From positions 1,415 through 65,414 of the forward strand of contig JANWZN010000001.1 in assembly GCA_025054575.1 (NCBI GenBank): DNA of 64,000 nucleotides. The letters are read 5' to 3'. The position numbers and the translations under genes were made by a program. This stretch comes from Geminicoccaceae bacterium. Lineage in GTDB: Bacteria; Pseudomonadota; Alphaproteobacteria; Geminicoccales; Geminicoccaceae. Positions 38,839-64,000 of this stretch are shown here, one piece after another. The notes below the pieces were generated by a model. That model saw only the letters and a list, made by a program, of their open reading frames with translations. It did no database searches and was not told the origin of the DNA. Position 1 is the stretch's first letter; every line of letters begins with the position of its first letter.

Positions 38839-38860
38839 GGCGTGCGCCGCGCTCGCAGCC

Positions 38861-42129: not shown

Positions 42130-42206
42130 TGGTCGGGGCGGCGTGATTTGAACACGCGACATCCAGCTCCCAAAGCTGGCGCTCTACCAGGCTGAGCTAC
42201 GCCCCG
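42130..42206 (-). tRNA. tRNA-Pro (anticodon UGG)
   Basis: Minus-strand cloverleaf: acceptor CGGGGCG/CGCCCCG, D-arm GCTCAGCCTGGTAGAGC, anticodon stem CCAGC/GCTGG with loop TTTGGGA (UGG, G37), T-arm GCGTG-TTCAAAT-CACGC, discriminator A and an encoded CCA. Confidence 0.9.
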
Positions 42207-50626: not shown

Positions 50627-50827
50627 TCAGCGGGTTTCGGTGCGCTCCTCCTCGGCCGGTGCCAGCAGCATGGCGCGCAGTTGCGCCAGGATCGCCTCGC
50701 GGCCGGCCCGGTCGAGGCGCAAGAGATCCGTCGCCGTCTGGATCACCGACAAAGCGGACCGAACGAGGCCCAGCAGCAGCGAATCGCGCAAGACTGCCCA
50801 AGCACGGTCGAAGCCCAATCGCATCAT
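50627..50827 (-). CDS. hypothetical helical protein (66 aa), possible tailspike accessory/chaperone
   Basis: Starts 4 nt after the tailspike stop, with a purine-rich AAGGGTGAG upstream. No recognisable domain. Confidence 0.4.
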   Translation of the reverse strand: MMRLGFDRAWAVLRDSLLLGLVRSALSVIQTATDLLRLDRAGREAILAQLRAMLLAPAEEERTETR

Positions 50828-50831
50828 GTTC

Positions 50832-53195
50832 TCACCCTTCGAGGTAGATCGAGTTGGTCTGGTTCGGATCGGAGGTCACCAGGTAGGCGGTGACGACGCG
50901 TCCGGACTCGGTGATCTCGAAGCAGGGGTAGCCGTTCGGGCTCGTGACGTTGCTGCGGCGCAGCGTGAGCTGGGGCGAGCTGTTGGCGCGCGCCATGATC
51001 CGGATCGGGTTGTTGACGGTCACGATTCGGAAGGTCGCGGCCGAGAGGCCCGACGGCATGCTCGCCGCTTCGAAGGCGACGTAACTCACCGGGTCGGAGG
51101 AACTGATCCGCAACAGCTGCCCGGCGCGGCTGGCGGGGACGACATAGGGGGTCGTGTCGGTGTTGCTGCCCTGGTTGGCATTCGTCCAGCCGGTGGCGAA
51201 CTCGTGCTGCAGCTCGCCGTCGGGCAGCGTCGTGCCGTAGACTTCGATCTTGCCGTTGGCCGGGTTGTGGCGGAGCAGGATCGTGACGAGCTGGTTCTGG
51301 CGCCGAACGGTGAGCGTGGCGCCGCCGGCCGGGTTCTTGATCTCGACGTTGGCGTCGCCGGCTTGAACGGTGACACTGCCGGTTCCTTGGCGCACGAGCC
51401 AGAACATCGCGGCGGGGTCGCCGGCTTCGAGGAGGGGGGCCGTCGTGCCGCCGAGGGTGTAGGTCGACGAGATCGTGACGGTGATGGCCCCGGCGTTGTT
51501 GACCCGGTGGACACGGCCGAAGTCGGCGGGCGAGAGGTTGAAGCTCGTATTGCGCTCGCGCTCGGGCAGGCGGCCCGGGAGGCTCACGCCCGGACCCCAG
51601 CCGTTGGCGAGCCGGGTGTACCAGCCGGGCCCGGCCCAGGGCGTGCCGGCGGGCAGCGCGGCGGGGCTCTCGCAATAGATGACGAAGCCGTTGCGGGGCG
51701 CGGGCGGCTCGCTCGCCCGCGGCGGCAAGTAGAGCGGGTCGGCGAGCTCGATGCGATGGAGCGGGCCGGCCGCGTGGCCCTCGCCGTTGCCGAGCGCGAT
51801 CCGGCTCTCCTGGCCGTCGGCGTAGCCGCGCGGGCGATAGATCCGGGCGACGTTGAACGAGGTGACGTCGATACCGAGCGCCTGACGTGGCGACGCGTTC
51901 TTGATGTTGCCGTCGCGGACCGGGCTCGTGCCGTCGTGGAAGTCGCCCGTGACCAGCAGCTGACCGACATTGGGGGCGCGCATCTGGAGTGCTGGCGCGC
52001 CCTGGTTCGGCTCGTCGAGCCAGAGGGCGGAGGGCAGGAAGAGGTCGCCCTCGCCGGCGCGGGCGGCGGCGTCGTTGCTGGCGATACCGACCGGGTTGAG
52101 CTGGCCGAAACCGTTGCAGTTGGCGAACAGGCACCGCATCACCGAGCCGGGCAGCGCGGCGTTGCTGTCGACCCAGGGCGTGGTGCAGTTCAGGACGTAA
52201 CAATTGATGAAACTCACATGGCGAACACTGCCGGAGTTTCCACCACCGGCGGCGCCCTCGACCCGGAAGGCGGTCTCCACGAATTCGATGTCGCAATTGA
52301 CGAGGGCGGTGCGCATGACGCGTTTGAGCCAGATCCCGGTGGATCCGGACGGGATACCGGCACTGTTGACCTGGACCCGGCTCAAAAGAATATTGTTCAT
52401 CACGTAGAGCTTGCCGGCGACTGCCGGGCCGAGATGCTCGATCAGGATACCGGTGGTCCCCGCCCCTTTGAGCTTGATCGCGATTTCCTCGATCAGACCG
52501 TCACCGTAATTGACGGCGGCCCCGGCGGCCGTGGCGTAGAGGCGGATCCCGCTCGCCAACAGATCGTGCTCGCCGCCGCCCGGCCCGGCCGAGATTTCGC
52601 GCAGGCAGAATTCGTTGGCGTCCTCGAGCTCGATACACCAGCCGCTGGGGCTGCCACCGGAAAAGCGAAGGCGCTGGGCGATGAATTCGTGACCGTGGGC
52701 CCAGAGGCCGCTTTGCGTCATTTTGATCGTGAGTTCTTCGATCGAGCTCCGGGCCCAATCGGTCGTGCCGCCGGGATCGACGGCGAACGAACCTTCGTTG
52801 CGGCGAAACTCGAAGGCTCGGGGCGCGACGGCATCGATCACCGCGACATCGCGGCCGGCACCGACGATGCGGCGCCGGGGGCGGACCTGGACCGTGCTCG
52901 CGAGGCGGTAGCGGCCGGCCGGGACGTGGACCTCGAAAGCGGCATCGAGGGCCGCCTGGAAGGCCGGCGCGTCGTCGGCGATTCCGTCACCGATCGCGCC
53001 GAAGTCGCGCACCGACACCCGCTCGGCGAGCTTGTCTCGCAACGGCCGGCGCGGCGTGCCGCTGGCGAGTCGCCACGGTAGCGCCTCGATGGCCGCCCGC
53101 CGGGTGAGGTTCCCGGCATGCGTCGACAGAACGAGCTGGTCGGCCGGCTCGACGCTCGCCGCGAGCGGCAGCTCGTGAATCCGCTTGGTGTTCAT
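50832..53195 (-). CDS. tailspike / tail fibre with a pectate-lyase-like right-handed beta-helix
   Basis: 787 aa. The N-terminus IHELPLAASVEPADQLVLS resembles phage fibre particle-binding heads. VRDFGAIGDGIADDAPAFQAAL is the Pectate_lyase_3 signature. Repetitive beta-helix coils follow, then two beta-rich C-terminal modules. Confidence 0.8.
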   Translation of the reverse strand: MNTKRIHELPLAASVEPADQLVLSTHAGNLTRRAAIEALPWRLASGTPRRPLRDKLAERVSVRDFGAIGDGIADDAPAFQAALDAAFEVHVPAGRYRLASTVQVRPRRRIVGAGRDVAVIDAVAPRAFEFRRNEGSFAVDPGGTTDWARSSIEELTIKMTQSGLWAHGHEFIAQRLRFSGGSPSGWCIELEDANEFCLREISAGPGGGEHDLLASGIRLYATAAGAAVNYGDGLIEEIAIKLKGAGTTGILIEHLGPAVAGKLYVMNNILLSRVQVNSAGIPSGSTGIWLKRVMRTALVNCDIEFVETAFRVEGAAGGGNSGSVRHVSFINCYVLNCTTPWVDSNAALPGSVMRCLFANCNGFGQLNPVGIASNDAAARAGEGDLFLPSALWLDEPNQGAPALQMRAPNVGQLLVTGDFHDGTSPVRDGNIKNASPRQALGIDVTSFNVARIYRPRGYADGQESRIALGNGEGHAAGPLHRIELADPLYLPPRASEPPAPRNGFVIYCESPAALPAGTPWAGPGWYTRLANGWGPGVSLPGRLPERERNTSFNLSPADFGRVHRVNNAGAITVTISSTYTLGGTTAPLLEAGDPAAMFWLVRQGTGSVTVQAGDANVEIKNPAGGATLTVRRQNQLVTILLRHNPANGKIEVYGTTLPDGELQHEFATGWTNANQGSNTDTTPYVVPASRAGQLLRISSSDPVSYVAFEAASMPSGLSAATFRIVTVNNPIRIMARANSSPQLTLRRSNVTSPNGYPCFEITESGRVVTAYLVTSDPNQTNSIYLEG

Positions 53196-53362
53196 GATTC
53201 GGGCTCCACGGCCAGCCGCTCGCCATGCTCGGTGACGAGAGGCTCGCCGGCTTCGGTGGCGAGGACGGGCGGGAGCGGAGGTGGCGACGCCACCTCGGCG
53301 GCTGTGCGCTCGCGACTCGTGATGCGCAGCCCCGCCGCCGTCAGCGCGAGGCCGAGGGGCAT
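53192..53362 (-). CDS. hypothetical small protein (56 aa; below the track cutoff)
   Basis: Hand translation: MPLGLALTAAGLRITSRERTAAEVASPPPLPPVLATEAGEPLVTEHGERLAVEPES. The ATG lies 1 nt after the upstream stop and its stop overlaps the tailspike ATG (ATGA). Confidence 0.4.
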   Translation of the reverse strand: MPLGLALTAAGLRITSRERTAAEVASPPPLPPVLATEAGEPLVTEHGERLAVEPES

Positions 53363-53363
53363 C

Positions 53364-53690
53364 TCAGATCCGGCCGATCACGTACGCAGCGCAAGGCGCG
53401 TCCTCGGCGACGAACGCCACGTAGCGCTCGCCTCGCCGGAGCGGGATGTCGAGATAGTGGCCCGGGGCCAGAAACGGGCTCGTCGTCGGGTCCGCGGTGA
53501 CCGTGGCGTCGCCGAGCTCGAAGCGGCAGGGGCCGGTAGCGTAGAGGGTCACGATCTCGATGTCGCTCGGGATCGGGATCGGGTTGCGGACGGACAGCGG
53601 GCCGACCGCGAGCTTCTGGGTGCCGCGGTAGTCGAATCCCAGGATCCCGATCGGGTTGCCGTTATCGTCGAGGGGGAGGAGGAGGCTCAT
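53364..53690 (-). CDS. hypothetical phage-associated protein (108 aa)
   Basis: ATG 53690 has GGAGA 6 nt upstream and sits downstream of promoter P3. Protein-like composition (MSLLLPLDDNGNPIGILGFDYRG...). Confidence 0.55.
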   Translation of the reverse strand: MSLLLPLDDNGNPIGILGFDYRGTQKLAVGPLSVRNPIPIPSDIEIVTLYATGPCRFELGDATVTADPTTSPFLAPGHYLDIPLRRGERYVAFVAEDAPCAAYVIGRI

Positions 53691-53718
53691 GGCGCGTCTC
53701 CGAACAACGACCCGAGCC

Positions 53719-53747
53719 TCTTTAGCAGGTGATAGGACGATCGTCAA
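53719..53747 (-). promoter_or_regulatory. promoter P3 (tailspike operon) with an embedded operator-like 9-mer
   Basis: Minus strand reads TTGACG-ATCG-TCCTATCAC-CTGC-TAAAGA (17-nt spacer). The layout and the 9-mer are the same as in P2. Confidence 0.5.
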
Positions 53748-53813
53748 GCTAACTAGGAATGATGCCTCGGACTCGGGCCGGCTCGCGAAGCCGCCCGACC
53801 CGGAACGCGGCTC

Positions 53814-54455
53814 CTACTGACTGACCCAGAGGATCCGAGCGAGCCAGGAAAGCCGATCGGCCTCGACGACTTCCTCCTTCTGGTTGGCGCTCACATCGTT
53901 CAGCACCACACGCTGCGCCGTTCGGCGGACGACGACGCCGAACAAGACGTGACCGTCGCGCAGGCGCGCGATCACCCGATCGCCGCGGCGAATGCTGCTG
54001 CCCGGTGAGACGACGAGCACGTCTCCGGTCCGGTAGAACGGCGCCGCGATGTCGCGATCGAGCTCGATGGCGTAGGCCTGCTCGTCCTCGATCGCGGGAT
54101 ACTCGATCTCTTCCCAGCCGGTCGGTTGCGGAAATCCGGAGGCGTCGAGGCAGCTCCCCTGCTCGACCTCGGCGAGCCCCGTGCACCGCAACCGGAAACC
54201 GCGGCCGGCCGGGCTACCGGGGGTCGCACCGTGCATCAGCTCGACGAACTCGTGCATCGGGGTGCCGGTCGCCTCCAGCACCTTGGAGATGCTCTCGGTG
54301 CTCGGCCAGCGGGGTTTGCCCTGCTTGGTGATGCGTTTGCTCTTGTTGAAGGTCGTCGGGTCGAGGCCGGCCTTCTTGGCGAGGCCGGAGGCCGACAGCT
54401 TGTGCCGCGCCGCGAGCCGGTCGATGCCGTCCCAGACCTGCTTGTGTGACAACAT
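53814..54455 (-). CDS. CI/LexA-like regulator: N-terminal HTH plus an S24-like C-terminal domain
   Basis: 213 aa. HTH region IDRLAARHKLSASGLAKKAGLDPTTFNKSK. The C-terminal domain aligns by eye to the S24 fold (YAIELDRDIAAPFYRTGDVLVVSP...GDRVIARL...VVRRT..VVLN). Confidence 0.75.
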   Translation of the reverse strand: MLSHKQVWDGIDRLAARHKLSASGLAKKAGLDPTTFNKSKRITKQGKPRWPSTESISKVLEATGTPMHEFVELMHGATPGSPAGRGFRLRCTGLAEVEQGSCLDASGFPQPTGWEEIEYPAIEDEQAYAIELDRDIAAPFYRTGDVLVVSPGSSIRRGDRVIARLRDGHVLFGVVVRRTAQRVVLNDVSANQKEEVVEADRLSWLARILWVSQ

Positions 54456-54508
54456 TAGGATGACACTCCCGGGTTTCGCCGTTCAACACCGCTTCCCTCC
54501 CTAGTTTG

Positions 54509-54537
54509 TTGACAGAGATCCGTCCTGTCAGTAGGTA
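54509..54537 (+). promoter_or_regulatory. promoter P1 (rightward) with an inverted-repeat operator
   Basis: TTGACA-GAGA-TCCGTCCTG-TCAG-TAGGTA. A perfect inverted repeat TGACAG-N9-CTGTCA (54510-54530) overlaps the -35. The -10 is weak. Confidence 0.4.
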
Positions 54538-54566
54538 TAAAAGCCGATCCAAGCCCGAGGGGATCC

Positions 54567-54974
54567 ATGTCGATCCTGCCATCCGTCGATCCGAGCCCGC
54601 CCGACGCGGCCATCGTGGTGTTCGAGGACCGTCCGGCGAGCCGCGCCCTCGCGCACCTTCGGCGCGGCTTCCGGCACTGCTTCTGCTTGCTCCGCCGCCC
54701 GGTCGGCTGGATCGTCTGCGATCCGCTGAAATCGAAGCTGCGAATCGAGGTCGTGGCGCCGTACGCGGCCGCCGAGCTCGGCGGGCATTATCGCTCGATC
54801 GGGATGATCGCGGTCCTAGGAGCCGTCGCCGAGCCCGCCTCCCATCGCCCGACCCTTCGCCCGCTCACCTGTGTCGAGGTCGTCAAGCGGATCGTCGGCG
54901 TCCGCTCCTGTGCGATCTGGACGCCCTATCAGCTTTATCGCGCGTTGCTGGCCCGCGGCTTCACACCGCTTTGA
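54567..54974 (+). CDS. hypothetical His/Cys-rich protein (135 aa), first gene of the rightward operon
   Basis: ATG 54567 has GAGGGG 4 nt upstream. No recognised family. Confidence 0.55.
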   Translation: MSILPSVDPSPPDAAIVVFEDRPASRALAHLRRGFRHCFCLLRRPVGWIVCDPLKSKLRIEVVAPYAAAELGGHYRSIGMIAVLGAVAEPASHRPTLRPLTCVEVVKRIVGVRSCAIWTPYQLYRALLARGFTPL

Positions 54975-54987
54975 GCCGGTTGGTGTG

Positions 54988-55016
54988 TTGACAAAAATCC
55001 TATCACGGTCCATATT
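54988..55016 (+). promoter_or_regulatory. promoter P2 (portal-to-terminase operon) with an embedded operator-like 9-mer
   Basis: TTGACA-AAAA-TCCTATCAC-GGTC-CATATT (17-nt spacer), 31 nt upstream of the portal ATG, which is preceded by GAGGA. Confidence 0.5.
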
Positions 55017-55046
55017 CCTTGAAGCCGACCATTCCGAGGACGACAC

Positions 55047-56552
55047 ATGGCTGCCGACGGCCTCGAGCTGCTCGTCGATCGTATCCGCCGCGCCCGGGCC
55101 CGCCGCGCCCCCTGGGAGCCACTGTGGCGGGAGTGCCATGCCTATGCACTGCCGCAGCGTGGCGGTGGCCTGGGCAGCGAGTTCGCGCCAGCTGCCCGCT
55201 ACGCCGACCGATTGTTCGACGGAACCGCGATCGACGCGGTCGAGCAGCTCGCCGCGAGCTTGATGGCCGAGCTGGTACCGCCCTGGTCGGAGTGGTTCGG
55301 CTTGCGGCCGGGGCCCGACGTTCCGCCCGGCGAGGCGGGGATCGTGGCCGAGCTCCTGGAGACGGCGGCGCGTCGTCTGCAAGGGCATTTCGACCGTTCG
55401 AATTTCGCGGTCGAAATCCACCAGTGCTTTCTCGATCTCGTGACCTGCGGCACGGCCCATCTCCTCTTCGAAGAGGCTCCGGCCGGCAGCATCTCGGCGT
55501 TCCGCTTCACCGCCGTTCCCGGTGCCGAGATGTTCGTCGACGGCGACCAGGCCGGCGATGTCACGAGCTTTTATCGGGTCACGGCTCACACGCTCGCGAG
55601 CCTCTTCGCGCGCACGAGCGCGGAAGCCTTGCCGGATCCGGTGCGCGAAGCCGGCAGGCAGGATCCGGATGCCCGCGTCGAGGTGATCGAGGCGGTCGAG
55701 CCTCGAGGCCCGCGCGGCTATCGCTTCACGCGGCTCCTGGCCCCCGGGGCGCCGGGCGCACCCGATGGCTGGATCCTCGCCGAGGGGTCTTTCGACACCT
55801 CTCCGTTCTTGTGCTTCCGCTGGAGCAAGGGCGCCGGCGAGATCTACGGCCGCTCCCCGGTGATGGCCGCGTTGCCGGACATCAAGACCGCCAACAAGGT
55901 GGTCGAGCTCATTCTCAAGAACGCCTCGATCGCCGTCACCGGCATCTGGCTGGCCGACGACGACGGCGTCCTCAATCCGGCCAACATCCGGCTGCAGCCC
56001 GGGGCGATCATTCCCAAAGCCGTGGGCTCGGCGGGTCTCACGCCCCTCCAGGCCCCCGGCCGGTTCGACGTGTCGCAGCTCGTGCTCGACGACCTGCGCG
56101 CGCGGATCCGCCACACGCTCCTGGTCGACCGACTGGGCCCGATCCGCGCCTCGAGGATGACGGCCACCGAGGTCCTGGAGCGGGCGGGCGAGACCTCGCG
56201 GCTTTTGGGCGCGGTCTACGGCCGGTTGCAGGCCGAGCTGCTCGTTCCCCTGGTCCGCCGTGGCCTCGCGATCTTGGCCCGTCGCGGCGAGATCCCGAAC
56301 CTGCCGCTCGACGGCCGCGCCGTCGAGATCGACTACCGTTCGCCGCTCGCCCGCGCCCAGGCCCGGGCCGACGTTCAGAACACCCTGTTGTGGCTCGACG
56401 CGGTCGCCCGCCTGGGCCCGGAGGCCCAGCCGGTCGTCGACGCTCGGGCCGCGGCGATCTGGCTCGCGCGCGCGCTCGGTGTCGCGGGCGAGCTGGTTCG
56501 CGAGGACCCGGCCTCGGCCGTAGCCGTCGCCACCGGGGAGATCGCCCCGTGA
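55047..56552 (+). CDS. phage portal (podovirus head-to-tail connector type)
   Basis: 501 aa. N-terminal pattern RRAPWEPLWRECHAYALP...RLFDGTAIDAVEQLAASLMAELVPPWSEWF and the central IYGRSP...ALPDIKTANK segment resemble the T7-gp8-type connector family. Its position ahead of the scaffold and capsid genes fits. Confidence 0.8.
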   Translation: MAADGLELLVDRIRRARARRAPWEPLWRECHAYALPQRGGGLGSEFAPAARYADRLFDGTAIDAVEQLAASLMAELVPPWSEWFGLRPGPDVPPGEAGIVAELLETAARRLQGHFDRSNFAVEIHQCFLDLVTCGTAHLLFEEAPAGSISAFRFTAVPGAEMFVDGDQAGDVTSFYRVTAHTLASLFARTSAEALPDPVREAGRQDPDARVEVIEAVEPRGPRGYRFTRLLAPGAPGAPDGWILAEGSFDTSPFLCFRWSKGAGEIYGRSPVMAALPDIKTANKVVELILKNASIAVTGIWLADDDGVLNPANIRLQPGAIIPKAVGSAGLTPLQAPGRFDVSQLVLDDLRARIRHTLLVDRLGPIRASRMTATEVLERAGETSRLLGAVYGRLQAELLVPLVRRGLAILARRGEIPNLPLDGRAVEIDYRSPLARAQARADVQNTLLWLDAVARLGPEAQPVVDARAAAIWLARALGVAGELVREDPASAVAVATGEIAP

Positions 56553-56845
56553 GAAAGACCGCCGAGCCCGATCCCTGGGCCGAGATCGACGGCGTCGCGG
56601 GCCCCGCCGATGGCGCGGACGAGCTCGCCCTCGCCTTCGCCCGCTGTTTCGCGAGCGGCGACGGCCTCGTGGTCGTGGAGCATCTGCAGCGGACCTTCTT
56701 GCTCCGCCGGGTGCCGCCCACCGCCAGCGACTCCGAGCTGCGCCACGTCGAGGGCCAGCGCTCGGTCGTCGCCCACATCCTGTCCTTGATCGATCGCGGC
56801 CGGACCGCCCGCCGGTCCGCCGACCAGCAGAGGATCGTCCCGTGA
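56549..56845 (+). CDS. hypothetical phage protein (98 aa)
   Basis: GTG 56549 overlaps the portal stop (GTGA) and its stop overlaps the next start (GTGA). Protein-like composition (LALAFARCFASGDGLVVVEHLQRTF...LRHVEGQRSVVAHILSLI). Confidence 0.55.
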   Translation: MRKTAEPDPWAEIDGVAGPADGADELALAFARCFASGDGLVVVEHLQRTFLLRRVPPTASDSELRHVEGQRSVVAHILSLIDRGRTARRSADQQRIVP

Positions 56846-57606
56846 CCCTCGAGACCGAGCCTGTTGTGGAGCCGATCGCGGCCGAGCCGCCCGTGCCGCA
56901 GACGACCGAAACGAAAGCGATCGAGCCGCCGGCGGACGTTCCGGAGAAGTTCTGGGACCCCGCGACCGGCACCGTGCGGGTCGAGGCGCTGCTCAAATCC
57001 TACGTCGAGCTGGAGCGCAAGCTCGGCCGCACGGTCCCGCTCCCCGAGGGCCCCGAGGATCGCGAGGCGCGCGAGCGTCTGCTCTCCGCACTCGGTCGCC
57101 CGGCGAGCCCGGACGAGTACCAGATCCAGGCGCGCGACGAGCTGGTCACACCGGACCCCGAACTCAATGCCCGGCTGCACGCCGCCGGCTTCACCCAGGA
57201 CCAGGTTCAGCTCGTCTACGATCTCGCAGCAGAACGCCTGCTGCCGATGGTCGCGAGCCTGGTCGAGGAGAGCGAGGCGGCCCGGCAGGTGGATCGGCTC
57301 GTCGCCCACTTCGGCGGCGAAGCGCGCTGGCGCGAGGTGGCGCGCGAGCTCAAGACCTGGGGCCAGGCCAACCTGGAGCCCGAGGTCTTCGCCGCCCTCG
57401 CCTCGAGCCACAAAGGGATCTTGATGATGCATCGGATGATGCAGGGCGGCGAGCCCGAACTCCTGGGCCGCGCCGAGCGCGGCACCGAGCGCCTCGATCA
57501 GCAAGCGCTCGACCTGATGGTGCGCGACCCGCGCTACTGGCGGGATCGCGATCCGAGCTTCATCGCGCGCGTCACCGAGGGCTTTCGAAGCCTCTACGGC
57601 GACTGA
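56842..57606 (+). CDS. putative scaffolding / capsid assembly protein
   Basis: 254 aa, acidic and helical. PEKFWDP...VEALLKSYVELERKLG resembles podovirus scaffold N-termini. It lies between the portal and capsid genes. Confidence 0.6.
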   Translation: MTLETEPVVEPIAAEPPVPQTTETKAIEPPADVPEKFWDPATGTVRVEALLKSYVELERKLGRTVPLPEGPEDREARERLLSALGRPASPDEYQIQARDELVTPDPELNARLHAAGFTQDQVQLVYDLAAERLLPMVASLVEESEAARQVDRLVAHFGGEARWREVARELKTWGQANLEPEVFAALASSHKGILMMHRMMQGGEPELLGRAERGTERLDQQALDLMVRDPRYWRDRDPSFIARVTEGFRSLYGD

Positions 57607-57726
57607 CGCGCCGCGCCGGGCGGACAACCGACAGGCCCGCACCGGACCCGTCGGGCGCGCCGGGCGGCCCCACGCGGGACAACCGCCGGCGGCCCGCTCC
57701 GACCGAAACACGAGCAGAGGTTGCCG

Positions 57727-58545
57727 ATGTCGACATACATCGACCAAGCGTTCGTCAAGCAGTTCGAGCGCGAAGTCCACGCCGCCTACCAGCGGCAGGG
57801 CTCGAAGCTCCGCCCGACCGTGCGGACCAAGAACAACGTCCGCGGTAGCACGACCGTGTTCCAGAAGGTCGGCAAGGGCGCGGCCGCGCCCAAGGCCCGC
57901 CACGGCATGGTCCCGGTCATGAACGTCGAGTTCGACCACGTCGAGGCCGTGCTCGTCGACTACTACGCCGGCGAATGGGTGGACCGGCTGGACGAGCTCA
58001 AGACCAACATCGACGAGCGCCAGGTTCTGGCCGCTGCCGGCGCCTATGCGCTGGGGCGCAAGACCGACGAGCTCATCATCAAGGCCCTCTCCCAGGCTTC
58101 GACGGCGGTCGGCTCGCCGGCCGAGGGCCTCACCAAGCAGAAGGTGCTGGCCGCCTTCGAGCATCTCGGTGACCACGACGTGCCGGACGACGGTCAGCGC
58201 TTCGCGGTCGTTGGTTGGCGGCAGTGGTCCGAGCTCCTGGCGCTGCCCGAGTTCGCGAGCGCCGAGTTCATCGGCGACGATCAGCTGCCCTGGCGCGGTG
58301 CCCAGGCCAAGATGTGGCTCGGCACGCTGTGGATCGCGCATTCGGGGCTGCCGCACGAGGCCGGCGTGCGGACCTGCTTCTGGTACCACCGCACCGCGGT
58401 CGGCCACGCCGTGGGTCAGGAGGTGGTGACCGACATCACCTGGCACGGGGACCGCGCGGCGCACTTCGTCGCCAACTCGATGTCGCAAGGCTCCGTGCTG
58501 ATCGACGGCACGGGCGTGGTCAAGATCCCCTGCCTGGAGGCGTGA
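57727..58545 (+). CDS. major capsid protein
   Basis: ATG 57727 has AGAGG upstream (TTG 57721 in the track). ~272 aa of capsid-family-like sequence (IDQAFVKQFEREVHAAYQRQGSKLR...). It follows the scaffold gene and a long structured leader. Confidence 0.75.
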   Translation: MSTYIDQAFVKQFEREVHAAYQRQGSKLRPTVRTKNNVRGSTTVFQKVGKGAAAPKARHGMVPVMNVEFDHVEAVLVDYYAGEWVDRLDELKTNIDERQVLAAAGAYALGRKTDELIIKALSQASTAVGSPAEGLTKQKVLAAFEHLGDHDVPDDGQRFAVVGWRQWSELLALPEFASAEFIGDDQLPWRGAQAKMWLGTLWIAHSGLPHEAGVRTCFWYHRTAVGHAVGQEVVTDITWHGDRAAHFVANSMSQGSVLIDGTGVVKIPCLEA

Positions 58546-58549
58546 TCCC

Positions 58550-58819
58550 ATGGCCTTCGATCCCAAGAACCTCAGCGTTCTCGCTTATGCCAATGGCTTC
58601 ACGCTTTGGCATTACCGAACCGCCGATCCGATGGCCGAGCTCTCGACGGCAGGATACTTCAACGCTGCCTCGGGGCTCTTGCGCGTCGGGGACCTCGTGA
58701 TCGCCCATGCCGGCGTCGGCGTGATCCCCGCGCACGGGCTGCTCGTCGTCCGTGGCAACAGCGGCGGCGTGGTCGATCTTTCCGACGCGACCCCGGTCGG
58801 TACCACCAACATCGACTGA
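58550..58819 (+). CDS. hypothetical phage protein (89 aa), possible head accessory
   Basis: Starts 4 nt after the capsid stop with GGAGG upstream. Protein-like sequence (LAYANGFTLWHYRTADP...). Confidence 0.5.
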   Translation: MAFDPKNLSVLAYANGFTLWHYRTADPMAELSTAGYFNAASGLLRVGDLVIAHAGVGVIPAHGLLVVRGNSGGVVDLSDATPVGTTNID

Positions 58820-58905
58820 GCGGCACGCGCCGCCCGAACGATCCGTCCGGTCGGGAGGGGTGACCCTCCCGACCGCCCTCGCCGCCGCGCTTGCGGAGGT
58901 CTGCC

Positions 58906-59271
58906 ATGCTCTCGAACTTCGCGCGCGCCGCCGGCGTCGCGGCGTGCCTCGTCGCTTTCTGCCTGCCCGCGGCAGCCTCCGAGCCGCCATCGGCCTGCCC
59001 TGCGCTGTCGCTCGCGGCACTCGCCGAGCGGCTCCCGGAAGCTCGCCGGTTCGCGATCGACGGGGCCGCGCTGGCACCACTCCTGGCTCTCTGGCCCGTC
59101 GATCCGGATCTCGCCGACGCCGTTCGGCCGGATTCCGCGACCGTCTTCGCTTTGCCCGGCCGGCCGCTGCTCGTCGCGCTCACCCGCGCGGGCTGCGTCG
59201 TGGGTGCCTTCGCCGCCGACCAGACACGCCTCTTCCACGACCTTCGCGCGCGGCTGGGTCTGCCGATCTGA
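58906..59271 (+). CDS. hypothetical secreted protein (121 aa)
   Basis: ATG 58906 has GGAGG 7 nt upstream. Signal peptide MLSNFARAAGVAACLVAFCLPAAASE. Confidence 0.5.
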   Translation: MLSNFARAAGVAACLVAFCLPAAASEPPSACPALSLAALAERLPEARRFAIDGAALAPLLALWPVDPDLADAVRPDSATVFALPGRPLLVALTRAGCVVGAFAADQTRLFHDLRARLGLPI

Positions 59272-59299
59272 CCCTTCCGGCGCGCAACGGGAGCGTCCC

Positions 59300-59872
59300 A
59301 TGCCGCATTCCGCCCTGAGCCTGTGCGCCGCGGCCCTCGTCAAGCTCGGCGCGCGGCCGATCGAAGCGCTCGACGAACCGACCGCCGAGGCCGAGGTCGC
59401 GGGCCGGCTCTACCCGCTCGTGCGCGACGCGGTCCTGCTCGCCCATCCCTGGTCGTTCACCCTGGCTCAGGCGACTCTCGAGCGCGAGCCGACCCGGCCG
59501 GCCGGCGACTTCGCGGCCGCGTTCCGCCTCCCGGCCGATCTCCTGCGGACGATCTCGGCGGGTCAGGGTGGGAGCGGTCGCGGCCTCGTCTATCGGGTAT
59601 TCGGCGATCGGCTGCACACCGACGCGGAGCAGGTTCTCCTCACCTATCAGCGCCGCCCGCCCGAGGCGGAGTTCCCGCCTTATTTCGTGCCCGCGCTGGT
59701 CGCGCGTCTCGCGGCCGAGTTCTGCTTGCCGATCACCGAGAACGCCGCGCGCGCCGACGTGCTCAACCGGCTCGCGGCGAGCGAGCTCAAGCTCGCCAAG
59801 CTGATCGACAGCCAGCAGGCGACACCGCAGCGAGTCGAAGACTTCACCCTCGTCCGGGCGCGCCTCGCATGA
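59300..59872 (+). CDS. tail tubular protein A-like (gp11-like adaptor)
   Basis: 190 aa. The size, the position before a ~650-aa tail protein, and the N-terminal pattern ALSLCAAALVKLGARPIEALDEPTAEAEVAGRLYPLVRDAVLLAHPWSF fit podovirus gp11-type proteins. Confidence 0.55.
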   Translation: MPHSALSLCAAALVKLGARPIEALDEPTAEAEVAGRLYPLVRDAVLLAHPWSFTLAQATLEREPTRPAGDFAAAFRLPADLLRTISAGQGGSGRGLVYRVFGDRLHTDAEQVLLTYQRRPPEAEFPPYFVPALVARLAAEFCLPITENAARADVLNRLAASELKLAKLIDSQQATPQRVEDFTLVRARLA

Positions 59873-61824
59873 CGCGCCAGCTTCTGTTGAAGACGAGTTT
59901 CGCCTCGGGCGAGCTCGATCCGTTGATGTTCGGCCGGATCGATCTGCGCGCCCAGGACGACGGCGCGCGCCGCCTCCGCAACGTCTTCGTCCACAGCGGT
60001 GGCGGTGTTTCGCGGCGGCCCGGCACGCGCATCCTGGCCGAGGTGCCGGGAGCGCGCCGGCTTCTGCCGTTCGACGACGACGATGCGGCCTTTCTGCTCG
60101 TCCTGGCGCCGGAGCGGCTCGTCGTCCTGCGCGACGGAAATCCGGTCGCCGACCTCGAGGCCCCTTGGTCGGCTGAGCAGCTCCTGGAGATCGATTGGGC
60201 ACGCTATCGCGACCGCCTCTACATCGTCCATCCCGATGTCCGCGGGATGGAGGTCATCCGCCGACGCAACGGCCCGGGCCAGCCGGATCGATGGGAGCTC
60301 CGCGACTGGCGCTTCGAAGCGGTCGAGCCCGAGCCCGGCATCCGCCGTCCGCTCGCACCCTTCGCCAAGCTGGCACCACCGGACACCGCGGTCCGCGTCC
60401 GTCGCGACGGCGACGATCCACCGGCCGGGGCCTCGGCCGGCGATTTCGTGCTCGTCGATGCCCGCCACACCGAGGGTGCTTCGACCGATGCGGTCTTCAA
60501 GCCAGAGCACTACGGCGTCTGGTTGAAAATCGCCGGCAAGTACGTCCGGATCGTCAATTATCAGGCCCCGAACCTGGTCCTCGCGAAGGCATACGATTCG
60601 TTCCCCGACAGCGCCTGGACGCTGCGATGGGAAGAAGAAGCCTTCAGCCACGCTCGCGGCTGGCCGCGCGCCGTCTCGTTCCACCAGGACCGCATGGTGA
60701 TCGGTGGCTCGCGCGACCTACCCGACTGGGTCTGGATGTCGCGCACCGGTCGGCCCCTCAATTTCGACGTCGGCACCGGTCTCGACGACGAGGCGATCGC
60801 CTTCCGGCTCGCCGACGAAACGCGGCACGTGATCACGAACCTCGTTCCCGGCCGGAATCTGCAGATTTTGACGACCTCCGGCGAGTGGATCGTGAAGGGG
60901 TTTCCGGTCACGCCGGCCGGGACCCAGGTCGAGCGGCAGACCCGGATCGGCTCGCGGCCCTCGCCGAGGGTCCGGCCGATCGACGTCGACGGGGCGACCT
61001 TGTTCGTCGGTGCGAGCGGTCGCGAGCTGCGTGAGTTTCTCTACACCGAGGTCGAGCAGGCCTATCAGGCGGCCGATCTCGCCACGCTTTCGCGCCATTT
61101 GCTGGACGACCCGATCGACGCCGCGTTCGACGGTCAGCGCCGGCTCTTGTGGATCGTCCGTCGAGACGGTCGGATCGCGACCGTCACGATCGATCGCAAC
61201 GCCAACGTCGCCGCCTGGACGCTCCAGGAATTCGAGGGTTCGGCGCGCGCCGTCGCCACCCTGCGGGGCAAGCTCCATCTGCTCCTGTCTTGGGCCGGCA
61301 CGACCGTGGTCGAGACGCTCGAAGAGGGTCTCTGGCTCGACCACGCCTCGGTCGCGGAAAGCGAAAGCGCGACCACGCAATGGTCCGGATTCGGGCGGTA
61401 TGTCGGCCGCTCGGTCGCCATCCTCGCCGACGGAGCCGAGGTCTGGCGCGGTACGCTCGGTGCCGATTCGATCCTGCTCGGCTCGCCCGCCCGCTCGGTG
61501 GTGGTGGGTGTGGCCTACGCGCACGAGATCGAGCCCGCGCCCACCAACGCTGCATCGCGCGGGGTCGCTCTCGACGCGTTGCATCGGCCGATACGGTCGA
61601 CGTTTCGCCTCGCCGACAGCCGCCGGCTGTCGGTCGACACGGGTAACGGTTTCCAGACCGTCGATCTCGCGAGTCCGGGGAGCCAAGCGTTCTCCGGCGA
61701 TCGCGTGTTGCGCGCGATGGGTTGGCGGCGCGGGCACGACGCATTCCTTTGGCGGATCCGGGACGATGCGGCCACGTCCTTCACGTTGCTGGCCGCGCAA
61801 ACCGAACTCAAGGTGAACGAGTAA
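59869..61824 (+). CDS. tail tubular protein B-like (gp12-like nozzle)
   Basis: 651 aa. ATG overlaps the upstream stop (ATGA). The N-terminus LKTSFASGELDPLMFGRIDL...LRNVFVHSGGGVSRRPGT fits the gp12-type pattern. Confidence 0.6.
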   Translation: MTRQLLLKTSFASGELDPLMFGRIDLRAQDDGARRLRNVFVHSGGGVSRRPGTRILAEVPGARRLLPFDDDDAAFLLVLAPERLVVLRDGNPVADLEAPWSAEQLLEIDWARYRDRLYIVHPDVRGMEVIRRRNGPGQPDRWELRDWRFEAVEPEPGIRRPLAPFAKLAPPDTAVRVRRDGDDPPAGASAGDFVLVDARHTEGASTDAVFKPEHYGVWLKIAGKYVRIVNYQAPNLVLAKAYDSFPDSAWTLRWEEEAFSHARGWPRAVSFHQDRMVIGGSRDLPDWVWMSRTGRPLNFDVGTGLDDEAIAFRLADETRHVITNLVPGRNLQILTTSGEWIVKGFPVTPAGTQVERQTRIGSRPSPRVRPIDVDGATLFVGASGRELREFLYTEVEQAYQAADLATLSRHLLDDPIDAAFDGQRRLLWIVRRDGRIATVTIDRNANVAAWTLQEFEGSARAVATLRGKLHLLLSWAGTTVVETLEEGLWLDHASVAESESATTQWSGFGRYVGRSVAILADGAEVWRGTLGADSILLGSPARSVVVGVAYAHEIEPAPTNAASRGVALDALHRPIRSTFRLADSRRLSVDTGNGFQTVDLASPGSQAFSGDRVLRAMGWRRGHDAFLWRIRDDAATSFTLLAAQTELKVNE

Positions 61825-62261
61825 TGGGTGCGCTCACGAGCTTGGCCACGCTCGGCCTCGACTTGGCGCTCGCGCAAAAGGCCCGCGAGGACGAGGCGGA
61901 TCGTATCAAGGAGCAGCGGCGGGCCGAAGTCCGCCGCATCCGCGCTGCCGATCTCGAGGATCAGCGCCGTCAACAGGCGGCGCTCGCTCGGCGCCTCGCC
62001 CAGGAGCGGGCGCGCGCCGGCGCGCTCGGCATCGCCGGCACCGGCGGCTCGTTCGATGCGGTGCTGCGCGGCCTCGAGGAGGAGAGCCGCGCGCTCCGCG
62101 ACGCGCGGCAGCGCGAGACGTCCGCACGGATCGCCGCCGCTCGCGAGCGTTGGGGTGCACGTTCGCGCCGCAACCTACTGGAGGTCACCGACCGTTTCGG
62201 CGAGATCGGCGCCCGGCTCCTCGACCGGCCAGCCGGCTCGCGGCGCAGCCTTCTCGACTGA
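61824..62261 (+). CDS. hypothetical Arg/Glu-rich coiled-coil protein (145 aa)
   Basis: ATG overlaps the upstream TAA (TAATG). Hydrophobic N-terminal stretch, then a charged helical region. Function unknown (internal virion protein or small terminase are guesses). Confidence 0.45.
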   Translation: MGALTSLATLGLDLALAQKAREDEADRIKEQRRAEVRRIRAADLEDQRRQQAALARRLAQERARAGALGIAGTGGSFDAVLRGLEEESRALRDARQRETSARIAAARERWGARSRRNLLEVTDRFGEIGARLLDRPAGSRRSLLD

Positions 62262-62262
62262 G

Positions 62263-63816
62263 ATGGACCGACCCGATGCGAGCCCGACCCCTCCGGTCGA
62301 CCCGAGCGTAGAAAGGTTCGAGCAGCGACTGCCAAGGATCAATTTCTTGCGCTTCGTGTGCCTATGGAATTACCATCAGGGCCGGACCACGCCACGACTT
62401 CATCTCGAGATCTGCCAGTGGCTGGACGAATGTTGGCGGCACAACGATCGCCGCTTGATCGTTCTCGTGTTCCGCGACGCTGGCAAGTCGACCCTCGCCG
62501 CCCTCTATTGTGCGTGGCTGCTGTACGGCGATCCCGAGCTGCGCATCCTCGTGCTATCGGCCGATCAGGCGCTCGCGGTCAAGATGACCCGCAACGTGCG
62601 CGGGATCCTCGAGCGTCACCGGCTCACCCGGCATCTCCTGGATCGCCGGCCGGAGTGCTGGGCGGCCGACCAGCTCACGGTTCGGCGCAGGCGGGTTCAC
62701 CGCGACCCGTCGCTGTTGGCGCGCGGGATCGGTGCGAACATTACGGGATGCCGGGCCGATGTCGTCGTCTACGACGATGTCGAGGTGCCGAACACCGCGG
62801 ACACGGAAGAGAAACGGGCGCTGTTGCGCGAGCGGCTCAAGGAGGTCGAGTTCGTGCTCGTGCCGAACGGCTTGCAGCTCTTCATCGGCACGCCGCACAG
62901 TGATCATTCGATCTATTCGGAAGTTCCGCGACGGGATCTCGGCGAATCGGAGCCCTTTTTGCAAGGTTTCCAGAGGTTGACCATGCCGCTGGTCTCGCGC
63001 AAGCGCGGGGAGCAGCGCTGGCCGGAACGTTTCGAGAATCCCGATGTCGATCGGCTGATCGAGCGAGCGGGTCCGGCCAAATTCCGCAGCCAGATGCAGT
63101 TGCTGCCCACCCGGCCGGAAGACGTCCGCCTCGATCCCGACCGGCTGCTGCCCTACGATGCGGCGATCGAGGTGGCCTCGGCGCACGGACGCGAGGTTCT
63201 CGAGATCGGCGGGCGCCGGATGGTCTCGGCCACGGCCGCCTGGGATCCGTCCTATGGCCGACCGGACCGTGGCGATGCGAGCGTGGTGGCGGCCTTGTTC
63301 GTCGACGGCGAGGGTCATTATTGGCTGCACGCGATCGACTATCTCGTCGTCCGACCCGATCGCAGCGAAGCGGTCGACGAGGCCACGGCGCTGTGCCGAA
63401 TGGTGGCGGGGTTTCTCGTGCGCCACCACCTCCCGTCCGTGATCGTCGAGAGCAACGGGATCGGCGGCTTTCTGCCGGCCCTCTTGCGCCAGGAGATCCG
63501 GCGCTGCGGCGCCGGTATCGCCGTGATCCAGCGGGCCGCCACCGTGCCCAAGGATCGCCGGATCCTGGAGGCGTTCGATCCGCTGTTGGCGGCCCGCCGG
63601 TTGCACGTTCACCGCAGCGTGCTCGCCACCCCGTTTCTCGAAGAGATGCGGAACTGGCGCCCCGGCCGACGGGGTCGCGACGACGGGCTCGACGCGGTCG
63701 CCACCTGCCTTCTGGCCGAGCCCGTCCGCCTGCCGCAGGTGGTGGCCCGGCCGGCCGGCCCGACGTGGCGGCACGCGCCGACCACGTTCCACGCGCCGAG
63801 CGATTTCCGGCTCTGA
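62263..63816 (+). CDS. terminase large subunit
   Basis: 517 aa. Walker A-like FRDAGKST, Walker B ADVVVYDDVE, and nuclease-domain acidic motifs (AAWDPSYG, VIVESNGIGG, RDDGLDAVA). Confidence 0.85.
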   Translation: MDRPDASPTPPVDPSVERFEQRLPRINFLRFVCLWNYHQGRTTPRLHLEICQWLDECWRHNDRRLIVLVFRDAGKSTLAALYCAWLLYGDPELRILVLSADQALAVKMTRNVRGILERHRLTRHLLDRRPECWAADQLTVRRRRVHRDPSLLARGIGANITGCRADVVVYDDVEVPNTADTEEKRALLRERLKEVEFVLVPNGLQLFIGTPHSDHSIYSEVPRRDLGESEPFLQGFQRLTMPLVSRKRGEQRWPERFENPDVDRLIERAGPAKFRSQMQLLPTRPEDVRLDPDRLLPYDAAIEVASAHGREVLEIGGRRMVSATAAWDPSYGRPDRGDASVVAALFVDGEGHYWLHAIDYLVVRPDRSEAVDEATALCRMVAGFLVRHHLPSVIVESNGIGGFLPALLRQEIRRCGAGIAVIQRAATVPKDRRILEAFDPLLAARRLHVHRSVLATPFLEEMRNWRPGRRGRDDGLDAVATCLLAEPVRLPQVVARPAGPTWRHAPTTFHAPSDFRL

Positions 63817-63888: not shown

Positions 63889-64000
63889 ATGGTCCGGCTT
63901 CTGGCGAAGGTCGTGGCAGCGCTGGTGGGCTCGATCGGGGTCGCCGCCGCGCAAGGCTTCCAGCCCGCGATCATCTTCGACATGGGCGGCAAGTTCGACA
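63889..64000 (+). CDS. BMP-family ABC substrate-binding lipoprotein, 3' end beyond the window
   Basis: MVRLLAKVVAALVGSIGVAAAQGFQPAIIFDMGGKFD: a signal peptide followed by the BMP-family (I/V)xDxGGKFD start. Confidence 0.55.
   Translation, partial: MVRLLAKVVAALVGSIGVAAAQGFQPAIIFDMGGKFD

Follow-up and report, generated by a model that had tools for sequence, protein, structure and literature searches.

A compact podovirus-type particle locus in a Geminicoccaceae bacterium is a candidate domesticated, gene transfer agent-like system

The 64,000-nucleotide stretch of a Geminicoccaceae bacterium genome analysed here (hereafter the window) carries at 50627-63816 a compact locus of podovirus-type particle genes, which an initial annotation had read as a candidate domesticated system resembling a gene transfer agent (GTA). 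We found 16 open reading frames (ORFs) in this locus, arranged in two divergent operons between metY and an ORF that starts at 63889. The rightward operon runs from g06 to g16 (54567-63816), while the leftward operon reads in the order g05, g04, g03, g02, g01. The two operons, the gene order and the strands are those of the initial annotation, whose stated count of 15 ORFs has to be corrected to 16, the number that it lists itself. The genes of the rightward operon are as follows.

54567-54974, plus strand: g06, 135-aa His/Cys-rich protein, first rightward gene, found in 78/80 genome loci (the best 80, defined below)
55047-56552, plus strand: g07, portal protein of T7 gp8 type (PF12236, E 3.5e-135)
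56549-56845, plus strand: g08, Bbp19-like small protein of 98 aa (PF25181, E 5e-16)
56842-57606, plus strand: g09, scaffolding protein of T7 gp9 type (PF05396, T7 capsid assembly, E 1.8e-15)
57721-58545, plus strand: g10, major capsid protein of HK97 fold (PF19821, E 6e-78; phrog_3437)
58550-58819, plus strand: g11, 89-aa post-capsid protein (phrog_18004, E 2e-20)
58906-59271, plus strand: g12, 121-aa protein with a hydrophobic N-terminal segment in its sequence, no family match
59300-59872, plus strand: g13, tail tubular protein A or adaptor of T7 gp11 type, 190 aa (phrog_394, E 5e-41)
59869-61824, plus strand: g14, tail tubular protein B or nozzle of T7 gp12 type (phrog_376, E 1e-98)
61824-62261, plus strand: g15, 145-aa helical-hairpin protein (two long helices in the AlphaFold2 (AF2) model)
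62263-63816, plus strand: g16, large terminase (TerL) of T7 gp19 type (phrog_38, E 2e-76)

Profile searches with Pfam and PHROGs bore out the earlier functional calls (portal, scaffold, capsid, gp11/gp12-like tail proteins, terminase, spike and CI-like regulator), and the portal, scaffold, capsid, adaptor, nozzle and T7-type terminase make up a T7-type structural module. The portal has solved relatives in Legionella phage LME-1 (9EFK_A, 1e-30) and in T7 (6R21, 4e-17); it is 100% identical to a protein of a Geminicoccaceae metagenome-assembled genome (MAG), and its homologues number thousands. The capsid protein matched that of LME-1 (9EG4_A, E 1.6e-24) and shares 49% identity with the capsid of Pelagibacter phage EXVC031P Hodr (hereafter Hodr). 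Similarly, g13 matched the LME-1 adaptor (9EFK_T, E 1.5e-4), and g14 matched 8CK1_A, 'Tail Nozzle' (6e-39), and LME-1 9EFK_M, with entry 8CK0/8CK1 among the solved relatives. The ATPase domain of g16 aligns to the T7 terminase (8DGC/4BIJ), and across 34 TerL sequences the Walker A (G74-T77), Walker B (D171-E174) and C-motif (G209-P211) residues, together with the C-terminal D328, D338, D348, E396, D439, D473, D474 and D477, are at least 95% conserved. The scaffold family was found in 128 loci, and g08, which has a homologue in Hodr, keeps its position between portal and scaffold. Members of the g11 family occur in 77 loci, with a Hodr homologue (33% identity) at the equivalent position, and g11 is possibly a head decoration or accessory protein. 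The g12 gene is confined to the Geminicoccaceae clade (family F19, 15 loci), and from its sequence the N-terminal hydrophobic segment looks like a signal peptide.

The gene junctions quoted in the initial annotation were all exact: GTGA at 56549 and 56842, ATGA at 59869, TAATG at 61822, the minus-strand ATGA (TCAT at 53192) and the 1-nt gaps at 62262 and 53363. For g13, ATG 59300, which gives a protein of 190 aa like those of its relatives, is the most likely start, rather than GTG 59204; a full-length homologue (47-85% identity) occurs in 51/80 genome loci and was found wherever the region was in range. The TerL frame is open upstream through all of g15 (ORF from GTG 61828; 61828-62262), so that longest-ORF gene callers over-extend TerL to 662 aa, and conservation of the TerL family begins near residue 31 of the 517-aa version.

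Among the 16 ORFs, Pfam and PHROGs revealed no integrase, polymerase, primase, holin, endolysin or small terminase, as the initial annotation had stated. NCBIfam gave no real match for the eight unassigned ORFs, and NCBIfam together with relaxed Pfam searches on the small uncharacterised proteins returned nothing useful. The features expected of a T7-like phage (its own single-subunit RNA polymerase, DNA polymerase/primase-helicase, gp15/gp16 and lysis genes) were found neither among the 16 ORFs nor in the flanks of the window and its relatives, and of those expected of an integrated prophage only a CI-like regulator is present, with no integrase or att site. The G+C content is about 69% in the window with no compositional step at the locus, and both the G+C and the third-position G+C (GC3) of the locus match those of the flanking genes, which agrees with the earlier observation on the third position. 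Neither edge carries a tRNA gene; the sole tRNA of the window, tRNA-Pro at 42130-42206, lies 8.4 kb off, and Rfam found nothing else. A search for bracketing att-like direct repeats yielded merely imperfect GC-rich chance matches.

Since the window ends 184 nt past the terminase stop, which cuts the ORF at 63889 and leaves the right flank out of view, the locus might belong to a full-length prophage, with its remaining modules situated past the end of the window or dropped through misassembly. An exact-sequence contig look-up with the window TerL gave no match. However, the closest full relative, L002 (L numbers denote loci), which comes from another species and has a 78% identical portal, runs on into a Bmp-type ABC transporter operon. 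It carries the same metY on its left; on its right, genes for a Bmp/PnrA-type binding protein and an ABC ATPase come in succession, and this Bmp protein matches the truncated window ORF at 63889 in its N-terminal part; the L002 flanks thus indicate that the block is bordered by host genes at both ends. In the window itself, metY (PF01053; 49258-50556, minus strand) is the left neighbour of the block, and beyond it lie genes for an alpha/beta-hydrolase, an SDR, a GST, an L,D-transpeptidase and a phosphoribosyltransferase, so that no less than 6 kb of the left flank consists of metabolic genes. Moreover, on contigs of 2.7 Mb and 1.2 Mb from relatives, the cluster spans about 10 kb with housekeeping genes directly adjoining on both sides, no spike and no integrase. 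The missing modules are therefore not contiguous with the cluster, which abuts housekeeping genes on Mb-scale contigs and complete chromosomes, and a full-length prophage is exceedingly improbable.

We scanned one genome per GTDB species with the portal as the query and found a portal relative in at least 584 species genomes. The locus-level comparisons below use the best 80 of these, with portal identities of 53-78% or, by a second estimate, 54-80%, which span Geminicoccaceae, Azospirillum, Magnetospirillum, Caenispirillum, Telmatospirillum, Tagaea, Defluviicoccus, Thalassospiraceae, Algihabitans and a Micavibrio-like group and include isolates and complete chromosomes of 2.9-4.6 Mb. Strain-specificity, which the initial annotation had named as a possible refutation, is ruled out by this spread and by L002, in which a second species holds the locus between the same metY/Bmp flanks. 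By tblastn and ORF clustering, one architecture is conserved: g05 on the minus strand, then (F9) g06, (F16), portal, Bbp19, scaffold, a variable insert, capsid, g11, tail tubular A, tail tubular B, (g15), in some loci a spike, and TerL. Sixty of the best-80 genome loci had enough sequence after the portal gene to be assessed. The cluster is complete within range in 23/60, with portal-to-TerL spans of 8.3-11.4 kb; another 22/60 have capsid and nozzle with TerL out of range, and 5/60 have the capsid only. TerL is present in the 18-kb Azospirillum regions of IMG/VR. The locus is effectively single-copy per genome; one MAG has two copies, with syntenic flanks at 81-92% identity, probably because two strains fell into one bin.

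Two further families belong to this architecture without being present in the window, and neither has a Pfam or NCBIfam match. F9 (about 142 aa; 57 loci), which most of the non-Geminicoccaceae loci have, lies between g05 and g06 (e.g., L112:686-1114 and L033:8507-8974), and F16 (110 aa) precedes the portal gene in some loci (e.g., L112:1553-1885).

The chromosomal neighbours of the cluster are housekeeping genes that recur both within and between host families. On the left, sdhA, sdhB and an aminotransferase IV gene flank it in Azospirillum, and the aminotransferase also lies beside g05 in Caenispirillum and other Rhodospirillales; in Tagaea, Telmatospirillum and others the neighbours are lysS and a DinG-like helicase gene; and purC, NAD kinase, phosphoribosyltransferase, rodA and ATPase-inhibitor zeta genes are found in the Micavibrio-like group. 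Pairwise identities of the portal and of the adjacent host gene were correlated in 8/9 flank families (Spearman rho 0.45-0.93, with pairs used as if independent and kinship ignored). Mean identities of portal and flank were similar, at 70.7% vs 64.3% for the aminotransferase and 63.6% vs 68.5% for lysS.

Selection on the genes was assessed by pairwise dN/dS (NG86). The core genes gave values of 0.01-0.45, and a single TerL pair reached 0.69. For those Azospirillum pairs in which dS is unsaturated (0.1-0.3), dN/dS was 0.08-0.13 for the portal, about 0.10 for the capsid and 0.09-0.20 for the nozzle; the flanking aminotransferase gave 0.06-0.12 at a dS of 0.14-0.20, within the range of the element genes, and the dS of sdhA/B was lower, at about 0.06. 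Between the window and L002, dN/dS was 0.15 for the portal, 0.11 for the capsid, 0.29 for TerL, 0.17 for the spike, 0.10 for g04, 0.26 for g11 and 0.23 for g15. Few ORFs of the orthologues are truncated; they are overwhelmingly intact and under purifying selection, where pseudogenes or relaxed selection would have spoken against the initial annotation. The absence of integration, replication and lysis modules, and the truncations, deletions and capsid-to-terminase losses in some relatives, are what an inert, slowly decaying and functionless prophage remnant would also display. In contrast, dN/dS lies far under 1 in every core gene, including the pairs with unsaturated dS, ORFs are intact in the large majority of loci, the TerL catalytic residues are conserved, and the portal evolves at a housekeeping-like rate; neutral remnants would not stay intact across inter-order divergence, and we regard this explanation as most improbable. 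The proposal that the locus is domesticated and maintained by selection is well supported by synteny, co-divergence with the host and purifying selection. Taken together, these results indicate that the window very probably carries a host-maintained, vertically inherited phage-derived particle locus, that is, a chromosomal cluster of structural genes only, inherited vertically and under purifying selection, as expected of a viriform.

We further examined the site between scaffold and capsid, at which host genes are embedded in two lineages. A 794-aa HAMP-PAS-GGDEF-EAL gene plus a PRC-barrel gene lie there in 25 Azospirillum-type loci (e.g., L033:12576-14963 and L034:12561-14945), and a PilZ-domain gene on the opposite strand occupies the same site in 13 Micavibrio-like loci (e.g., L072:12563-12952). 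The embedded GGDEF-EAL gene has a dN/dS of 0.07-0.19. This suggests that the particle locus was linked independently to cyclic di-GMP (c-di-GMP) signalling in the two lineages. The isolate-derived L220 is permuted, with TerL, host genes, capsid, g11, tail tubular A and tail tubular B followed by portal, Bbp19 and scaffold; its ORFs are intact, and DUF2927, metallo-beta-lactamase-fold and radical-SAM genes are interleaved. The host genes inside the operon and the rearranged yet intact L220 point to long residence in the host chromosome. The locus could also be a helper-dependent mobile satellite or mini-phage of the capsid-forming island type that leans on a co-resident phage or on the host, as it is compact and combines structural and packaging genes with a CI-like regulator, and IMG/VR tools call such regions viral. 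We consider this very unlikely, given the lack of any integrase, replication, primase or excisionase gene or att repeat, the fixed chromosomal position within and across families, divergence that follows the host, the embedded host genes and the effectively single copy.

No close full-length prophage relative was found either. Among about 50,000 sequenced phages, the best match was Hodr, whose portal is 36% and whose capsid is 49% identical. The genome of this phage measures 34 kb and has about 60 genes, among them those for a recombinase, an ArdC-like anti-restriction factor and two large post-nozzle proteins of 783 and 1247 aa. Homologues of the window portal, Bbp19, scaffold, capsid, g11 and nozzle occur in Hodr, while tblastn found no g05, g06, g12, g15 or T7-type terminase of the window in it. 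IMG/VR holds hundreds of relatives, of which we examined the 80 best matches to the portal and, likewise, the 80 best to the capsid. Apart from a single contig of 94 kb, they are contigs or predicted regions 4-36 kb long; the mapped ones carry the same cluster, relatives of 4-25 kb are pieces of it, and no 30-40 kb phage genome was found among them. Regions of about 18 kb in IMG/VR come from isolate genomes (L176, L179, L183, L184, L187, L188, L190 and L195), and the INPHARED entry MT838907.1, a 5-kb 'Bacteriophage sp.' from human faeces, shows 53.5% portal and 58.8% capsid identity. The IMG/VR regions and MT838907.1 are probably copies of the same domesticated element, not phages.

Between the two operons lie the regulator gene g05 and a divergent promoter region, with the following elements, of which the region, the TAGGA motif and the promoter were read from the sequence.

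53814-54455, minus strand: g05, CI/LexA-like regulator with helix-turn-helix (HTH) and S24 domains (PF00717, E 6e-6; HTH_26)
54456-54566, no strand: divergent regulatory region
54456-54460, no strand: TAGGA beside the g05 start
54509-54537, no strand: -35 element TTGACA (54509-54514), N17, TAGGTA (54532-54537)
54510-54530, no strand: candidate operator palindrome TGACAG-N9-CTGTCA, shared with 7 close relatives
54988-55016, plus strand: another match to a sigma-70-like promoter, TTGACA-N17-CATATT, lying before the portal gene (consensus scan, 10/12)

The g05 gene lies beside the operon in 74/80 genome loci and is the most constrained gene, with a dN/dS of 0.01-0.06 in Azospirillum pairs. The layout of the intergenic region is conserved, with TAGGA...TCCTA-type palindromes beside the g05 start and upstream of the -35 element, which is itself near-universal (CTTGAC/TTGAC in 88 of 112 distinct homologous regions). 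We rejected TGACAG-N9-CTGTCA as a universal operator, as it is present in 7/94 loci. The motif GAAC-N7-GAAC or GTTC-N7-GTTC is the Caulobacter SOS box (PMC9578287), and it occurs exactly in 38/112 regulatory regions and with one relaxed position in 62/112, against a background expectation of 0.0056 per 220 nt, or about 0.6 over 112 regions. The motif starts 29-37 nt (in few cases 20 nt) downstream of the -35 element and overlaps the promoter, which may reflect control by a host circuit. Unlike most other clades, the window and its clade have no SOS box in the regulatory region.

The family consensus of g05 contains the S24 motif GDSM...K, and hhalign puts both catalytic residues on S119/K156 of LexA (probability 78%). 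In the window g05, Ile136 and Gly173 replace the catalytic dyad, and the protein is predicted to be a pseudo-peptidase in this lineage. Among 93 distinct g05 copies, drawn from the window and the homologous regions of L001-L163, 47 have both dyad and SOS box, 13 the dyad only, 3 the box only and 30 neither, an association with a Fisher p of 5e-11 in a test that ignores kinship. All copies of the Geminicoccaceae clade, including that of the window, have neither dyad nor box. We infer that LexA and a cleavable repressor may have made the ancestral element SOS-inducible, and that the window lineage may have become uncoupled from RecA/LexA.

The remaining leftward genes form a spike module and two small ORFs, as follows.

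50627-50827, minus strand: g01, 66-aa ORF, an uncertain gene with host-like GC3 and no family match
50832-53195, minus strand: g02, 787-aa beta-helix tailspike (PF12708, E 9e-11; about 20 tail-spike/tail-fibre PHROGs)
53192-53362, minus strand: g03, 56-aa ORF, an uncertain gene with an ATGA overlap with g02
53364-53690, minus strand: g04, 108-aa spike-module companion, 90% identical in L002, no family match

The g02 product is a receptor-binding spike and probably a polysaccharide depolymerase. Its pectate-lyase-like region is N-terminal, and the N-terminal 100 aa or so are conserved in the post-nozzle spikes of Azospirillum and Micavibrio-like loci. For g01, a homologue was found only in L002 (38% identity, dN/dS 0.63), and the same holds for g03 (dN/dS 0.61); given this weak constraint (about 0.6), g01 and g03 may not be real genes. 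The g04 homologue in L171 lies directly after the scaffold gene, a position that family F29 holds in the L010/L013 clade, upstream of beta-helix spikes. The initial annotation counted the leftward spike operon as part of the locus, and this stands for the window; g01-g04 nevertheless fall outside the conserved core, their position being shared only with L002. Across clades, the receptor-binding module, a g04-like small protein with 1-3 beta-helix spikes, takes at least three positions (further examples are L025:18767-20803 and L176:14411-14755). In the window (50832-53690) and L002 it lies downstream of g05; another Geminicoccaceae clade has it between scaffold and capsid (L010:12555-17428; L013:12690-17294); Azospirillum and Micavibrio-like loci have it after the nozzle gene or after g15, while other clades (L005/L081, L082) have the cluster without a spike.

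We then considered the functions of g15 and g06. Judged by the AF2 model, weak T7_gp14 matches and its position after the nozzle gene, g15 is a probable gp14-like internal (ejection) protein. The initial claim that the locus has no ejection module was thus slightly overstated with respect to g15, and it stands for the large gp15/gp16-type genes: in the mapped loci no gene of that size follows the nozzle gene, and the ORFs of 700-1300 aa found there are spikes only. We rejected g15 as the small terminase, a role suggested by its place next to TerL, in view of the helical-hairpin model, the recurrent weak T7_gp14 matches and the post-nozzle position. An Rz-like i-spanin was also considered, with a conserved Asp in the N-terminal segment.

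The g06 protein has the nearly invariant residues H37, C38, C40, C51, D52 and C102 and a confident AF2 model (pLDDT 91.5) without a fold match in the PDB. It resembles seven uncharacterised Caudovirales proteins in BFVD (TM 0.6-0.78), which indicates a phage origin, and an invention of the host was rejected on the same ground, since BFVD places g06 in a phage protein family. A cysteine peptidase was likewise rejected, the vasohibin/papain-like protease matches in the PDB being non-significant (E at least 0.28, TM at most 0.34). Elsewhere in the window, at 36000-40000, the AT skew is unusually high and positive, reaching 0.34, and G+C is lower than in the rest (about 0.65-0.67), with no Rfam RNA gene.

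We propose, with a probability of roughly 0.6, that the locus is an ancient, domesticated and host-owned remnant of a T7/BPP-1-like podovirus in which DNA packaging and transfer persist, that is, a viriform of GTA type; particle-building and packaging genes would be all that is left of the phage, and the cluster behaves like a set of chromosomal genes, not like a virus. We take 'GTA-like' to be the best available and most economical reading. In the proposed mechanism, g05 would bind palindromic operators over the divergent promoter and hold the rightward operon off. Upon an inducing signal, portal, scaffold and capsid would be made and, by homology, proheads would assemble, which the T7-type terminase would fill with chromosomal DNA; given that there is no replicating or excising copy of the element, the packaged DNA would have to be chromosomal. 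Adaptor, nozzle and beta-helix spike would then finish a short-tailed particle, again by homology. With the gp14-like protein kept and the large gp15/gp16-type core absent, the DNA may, speculatively, be delivered across the outer membrane only and depend on uptake by the recipient. In most clades, induction would probably come from the SOS response through the LexA box over the promoter and a cleavable g05, whereas in the window clade, from which both were lost, some other signal may act.

A domesticated particle with a role other than transfer, such as stress-induced killing of competitors bound through the spike, a decoy or anti-phage device directed at related podoviruses, or the controlled release of DNA or protein, would draw on the same evidence of domestication. 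Bacteriocins and tailocins typically have control of SOS type, the pattern of most clades here, the large internal core proteins that T7-like phages need to reach the cytoplasm are absent, and the spike genes vary much in position and sequence, which would fit targeting. However, TerL is kept under purifying selection with conserved ATPase and nuclease residues, and portal and scaffold are kept as well, and this retention indicates that DNA packaging matters. To our knowledge, killing particles such as tailocins are headless, and we know of no head-bearing podovirus-type bacteriocin, which also argues against a non-transfer role. We regard such a role as unlikely.

Several observations weigh against the GTA-type reading. 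In every host, particles, packaged DNA and transfer are predictions from the genes. In the locus and next to it, we identified no small terminase, holin, endolysin or spanin, so that key functions are encoded elsewhere or missing. The gp14 assignment of g15 is weak: T7_gp14 of Pfam matches 4/34 family members, with a best E of 1e-4 that does not reach the Pfam cutoff, and it was confirmed neither by searching PDB profiles nor by running hhalign against the post-nozzle protein of Hodr. LME-1 has the nearest solved relative of this capsid, and an LME-1-like capacity of 30 kb would exceed the 10-13 kb locus, unlike in classical GTAs. The spike operon of the window is common to L002 only, and kinship enters neither the dyad/SOS-box test nor the portal/flank correlations. 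In L060 (15868-16815) a deletion fuses a capsid fragment to a TerL fragment, in L212 (11739-13968) the nozzle gene is truncated at 296 aa with an integrase gene directly after it, and in L047 TerL has an internal stop; these disruptions imply that the system is dispensable in some lineages. Finally, 10/60 assessable loci have no capsid gene in at least 8.5 kb after the portal gene.

The integrase of L212, the only one seen, probably belongs to a different inserted element. The ten loci without a capsid gene (L017, L026, L035, L040, L041, L059, L064, L071, L078 and L080) come from several Azospirillum sp., Magnetospirillum sulfuroxidans, Magnetospirillum sp. SS-4 and some MAGs; they keep the g05-to-scaffold half intact, as either a split cluster, as in some known GTAs, or a half-lost one. 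A search of PLSDB for the second half on an Azospirillum chromid or plasmid gave no capsid match save LME-1. An orphan phage-type lysozyme without phage neighbours is the only phage-related gene reported for the Azospirillum core genome and is also found in Magnetospirillum magneticum (PMC3899980); it is a candidate source of the lysis function that the cluster lacks.

A more detailed scenario, which we offer tentatively and hold to be rather doubtful as a whole, has two domestications in Alphaproteobacteria. RcGTA is set in the Rhizobiales-Rhodobacterales-Caulobacterales-Sphingomonadales clade, and the podovirus GTA in Geminicoccales, Azospirillum, Magnetospirillum, Tagaea, the Micavibrio-like group and others. 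The podovirus, unrelated to the RcGTA phage, would have been captured in an ancestor of the deeper-branching, Rhodospirillales-grade orders and become a single-copy GTA of about 10 kb with periplasm-only delivery, SOS-induced ancestrally, rewired in Geminicoccaceae and tied to c-di-GMP in Azospirillum and the Micavibrio-like group.

Few GTA lineages are known, and in Alphaproteobacteria only the RcGTA type is well defined genetically. If the GTA-type reading is true, a second, unrelated lineage would mean that the conversion of a phage into a host-owned particle is repeatable, here from a podovirus, in hundreds of species and in orders reported without RcGTA. It would also offer a natural comparison of converging features: replication, integration and core ejection proteins are lost, regulation lies with the host, and the receptor-binding module changes place. 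The joint loss of g05 dyad and SOS box in Geminicoccaceae is a compact case of regulatory rewiring in a domesticated element. Viral-detection pipelines call such loci prophages (IMG/VR regions of about 18 kb), which inflates prophage counts in these taxa. The carriers Azospirillum brasilense, Magnetospirillum and Caenispirillum are cultivable and genetically tractable, which makes the hypothesis directly testable. The locus is probably a previously undescribed host-owned phage-derived particle system: literature searches that covered GTAs as well as podoviruses, Bbp19 and the host genera gave no description of this alphaproteobacterial cluster, and it is not among the core phage-related genes listed in Azospirillum genome papers.

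Compared with known systems, LME-1 (9EG4/9EFK) and Hodr have homologous capsid, portal, adaptor and nozzle proteins in the same gene order, at 25-49% identity to the window. Both are genuine phages of 30-34 kb in which tblastn detected neither g05 nor g06; the Hodr terminase is weakly T4-type, whereas that of the window is T7-type. LME-1 is reported to excise, replicate and lysogenise, and its T=7 capsid holds 30 kb (PMC12407071). Capsid-forming phage-inducible chromosomal islands (cf-PICI) and other phage satellites are, like the cluster, small chromosomal elements with their own capsid, portal and terminase. Satellites are mobile, carry integrase, regulatory and replication modules and hijack helper tails; the cluster has none of those modules, brings its own tail and spike and sits at fixed syntenic positions. 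It is not a tailocin, a tail-only particle, since it has kept its capsid, scaffold, portal and terminase in conserved form. FpGTA of Faecalibacterium prausnitzii, compared here by description only, resembles the cluster in its compact operons and in the podovirus-like morphology inferred by its authors; it differs in being a Firmicutes system of two operons that include baseplate, holin and endolysin genes, and its packaging of host DNA was shown experimentally (PMC12946183), while the cluster is known from its gene content.

A parallel in lifestyle lies in RcGTA of Rhodobacter capsulatus and CcGTA of Caulobacter (Rhodogtaviriformidae), which likewise are chromosomal clusters for head, tail and packaging and lack genes for integration or replication. 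RcGTA is, like the cluster, vertically inherited under purifying selection, with host-like composition, partial loss in some lineages and regulation of host type, which the cluster may share. The ancestry is unrelated: the cluster has a PF12236 portal, a T7-type scaffold, a PF19821 capsid, adaptor and nozzle, and a T7-type terminase, and the contrast drawn in the initial annotation was correct, since it has no prohead protease, tape measure or long tail. Its control apparently rests, to judge from sequence, on a CI/LexA-like regulator and SOS boxes, unlike that of RcGTA, which is controlled through CtrA/GafA. For RcGTA, particles and DNA transfer have been demonstrated, whereas the cluster is known from its genes. 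The particles of A. lipoferum are said to have siphovirus morphology, and for this reason we do not link them to this locus. These GTA-like particles are reported to be mitomycin-inducible and to contain about 10 kb of DNA, and were tentatively assigned to RcGTA-like HK97 clusters (PMC3899980). Large RcGTA-like clusters have been reported absent from Rhodospirillales and Micavibrio (PMC5721377), and the distributions of RcGTA and of the cluster described here look complementary, the latter living in the Rhodospirillales and Micavibrio groups.

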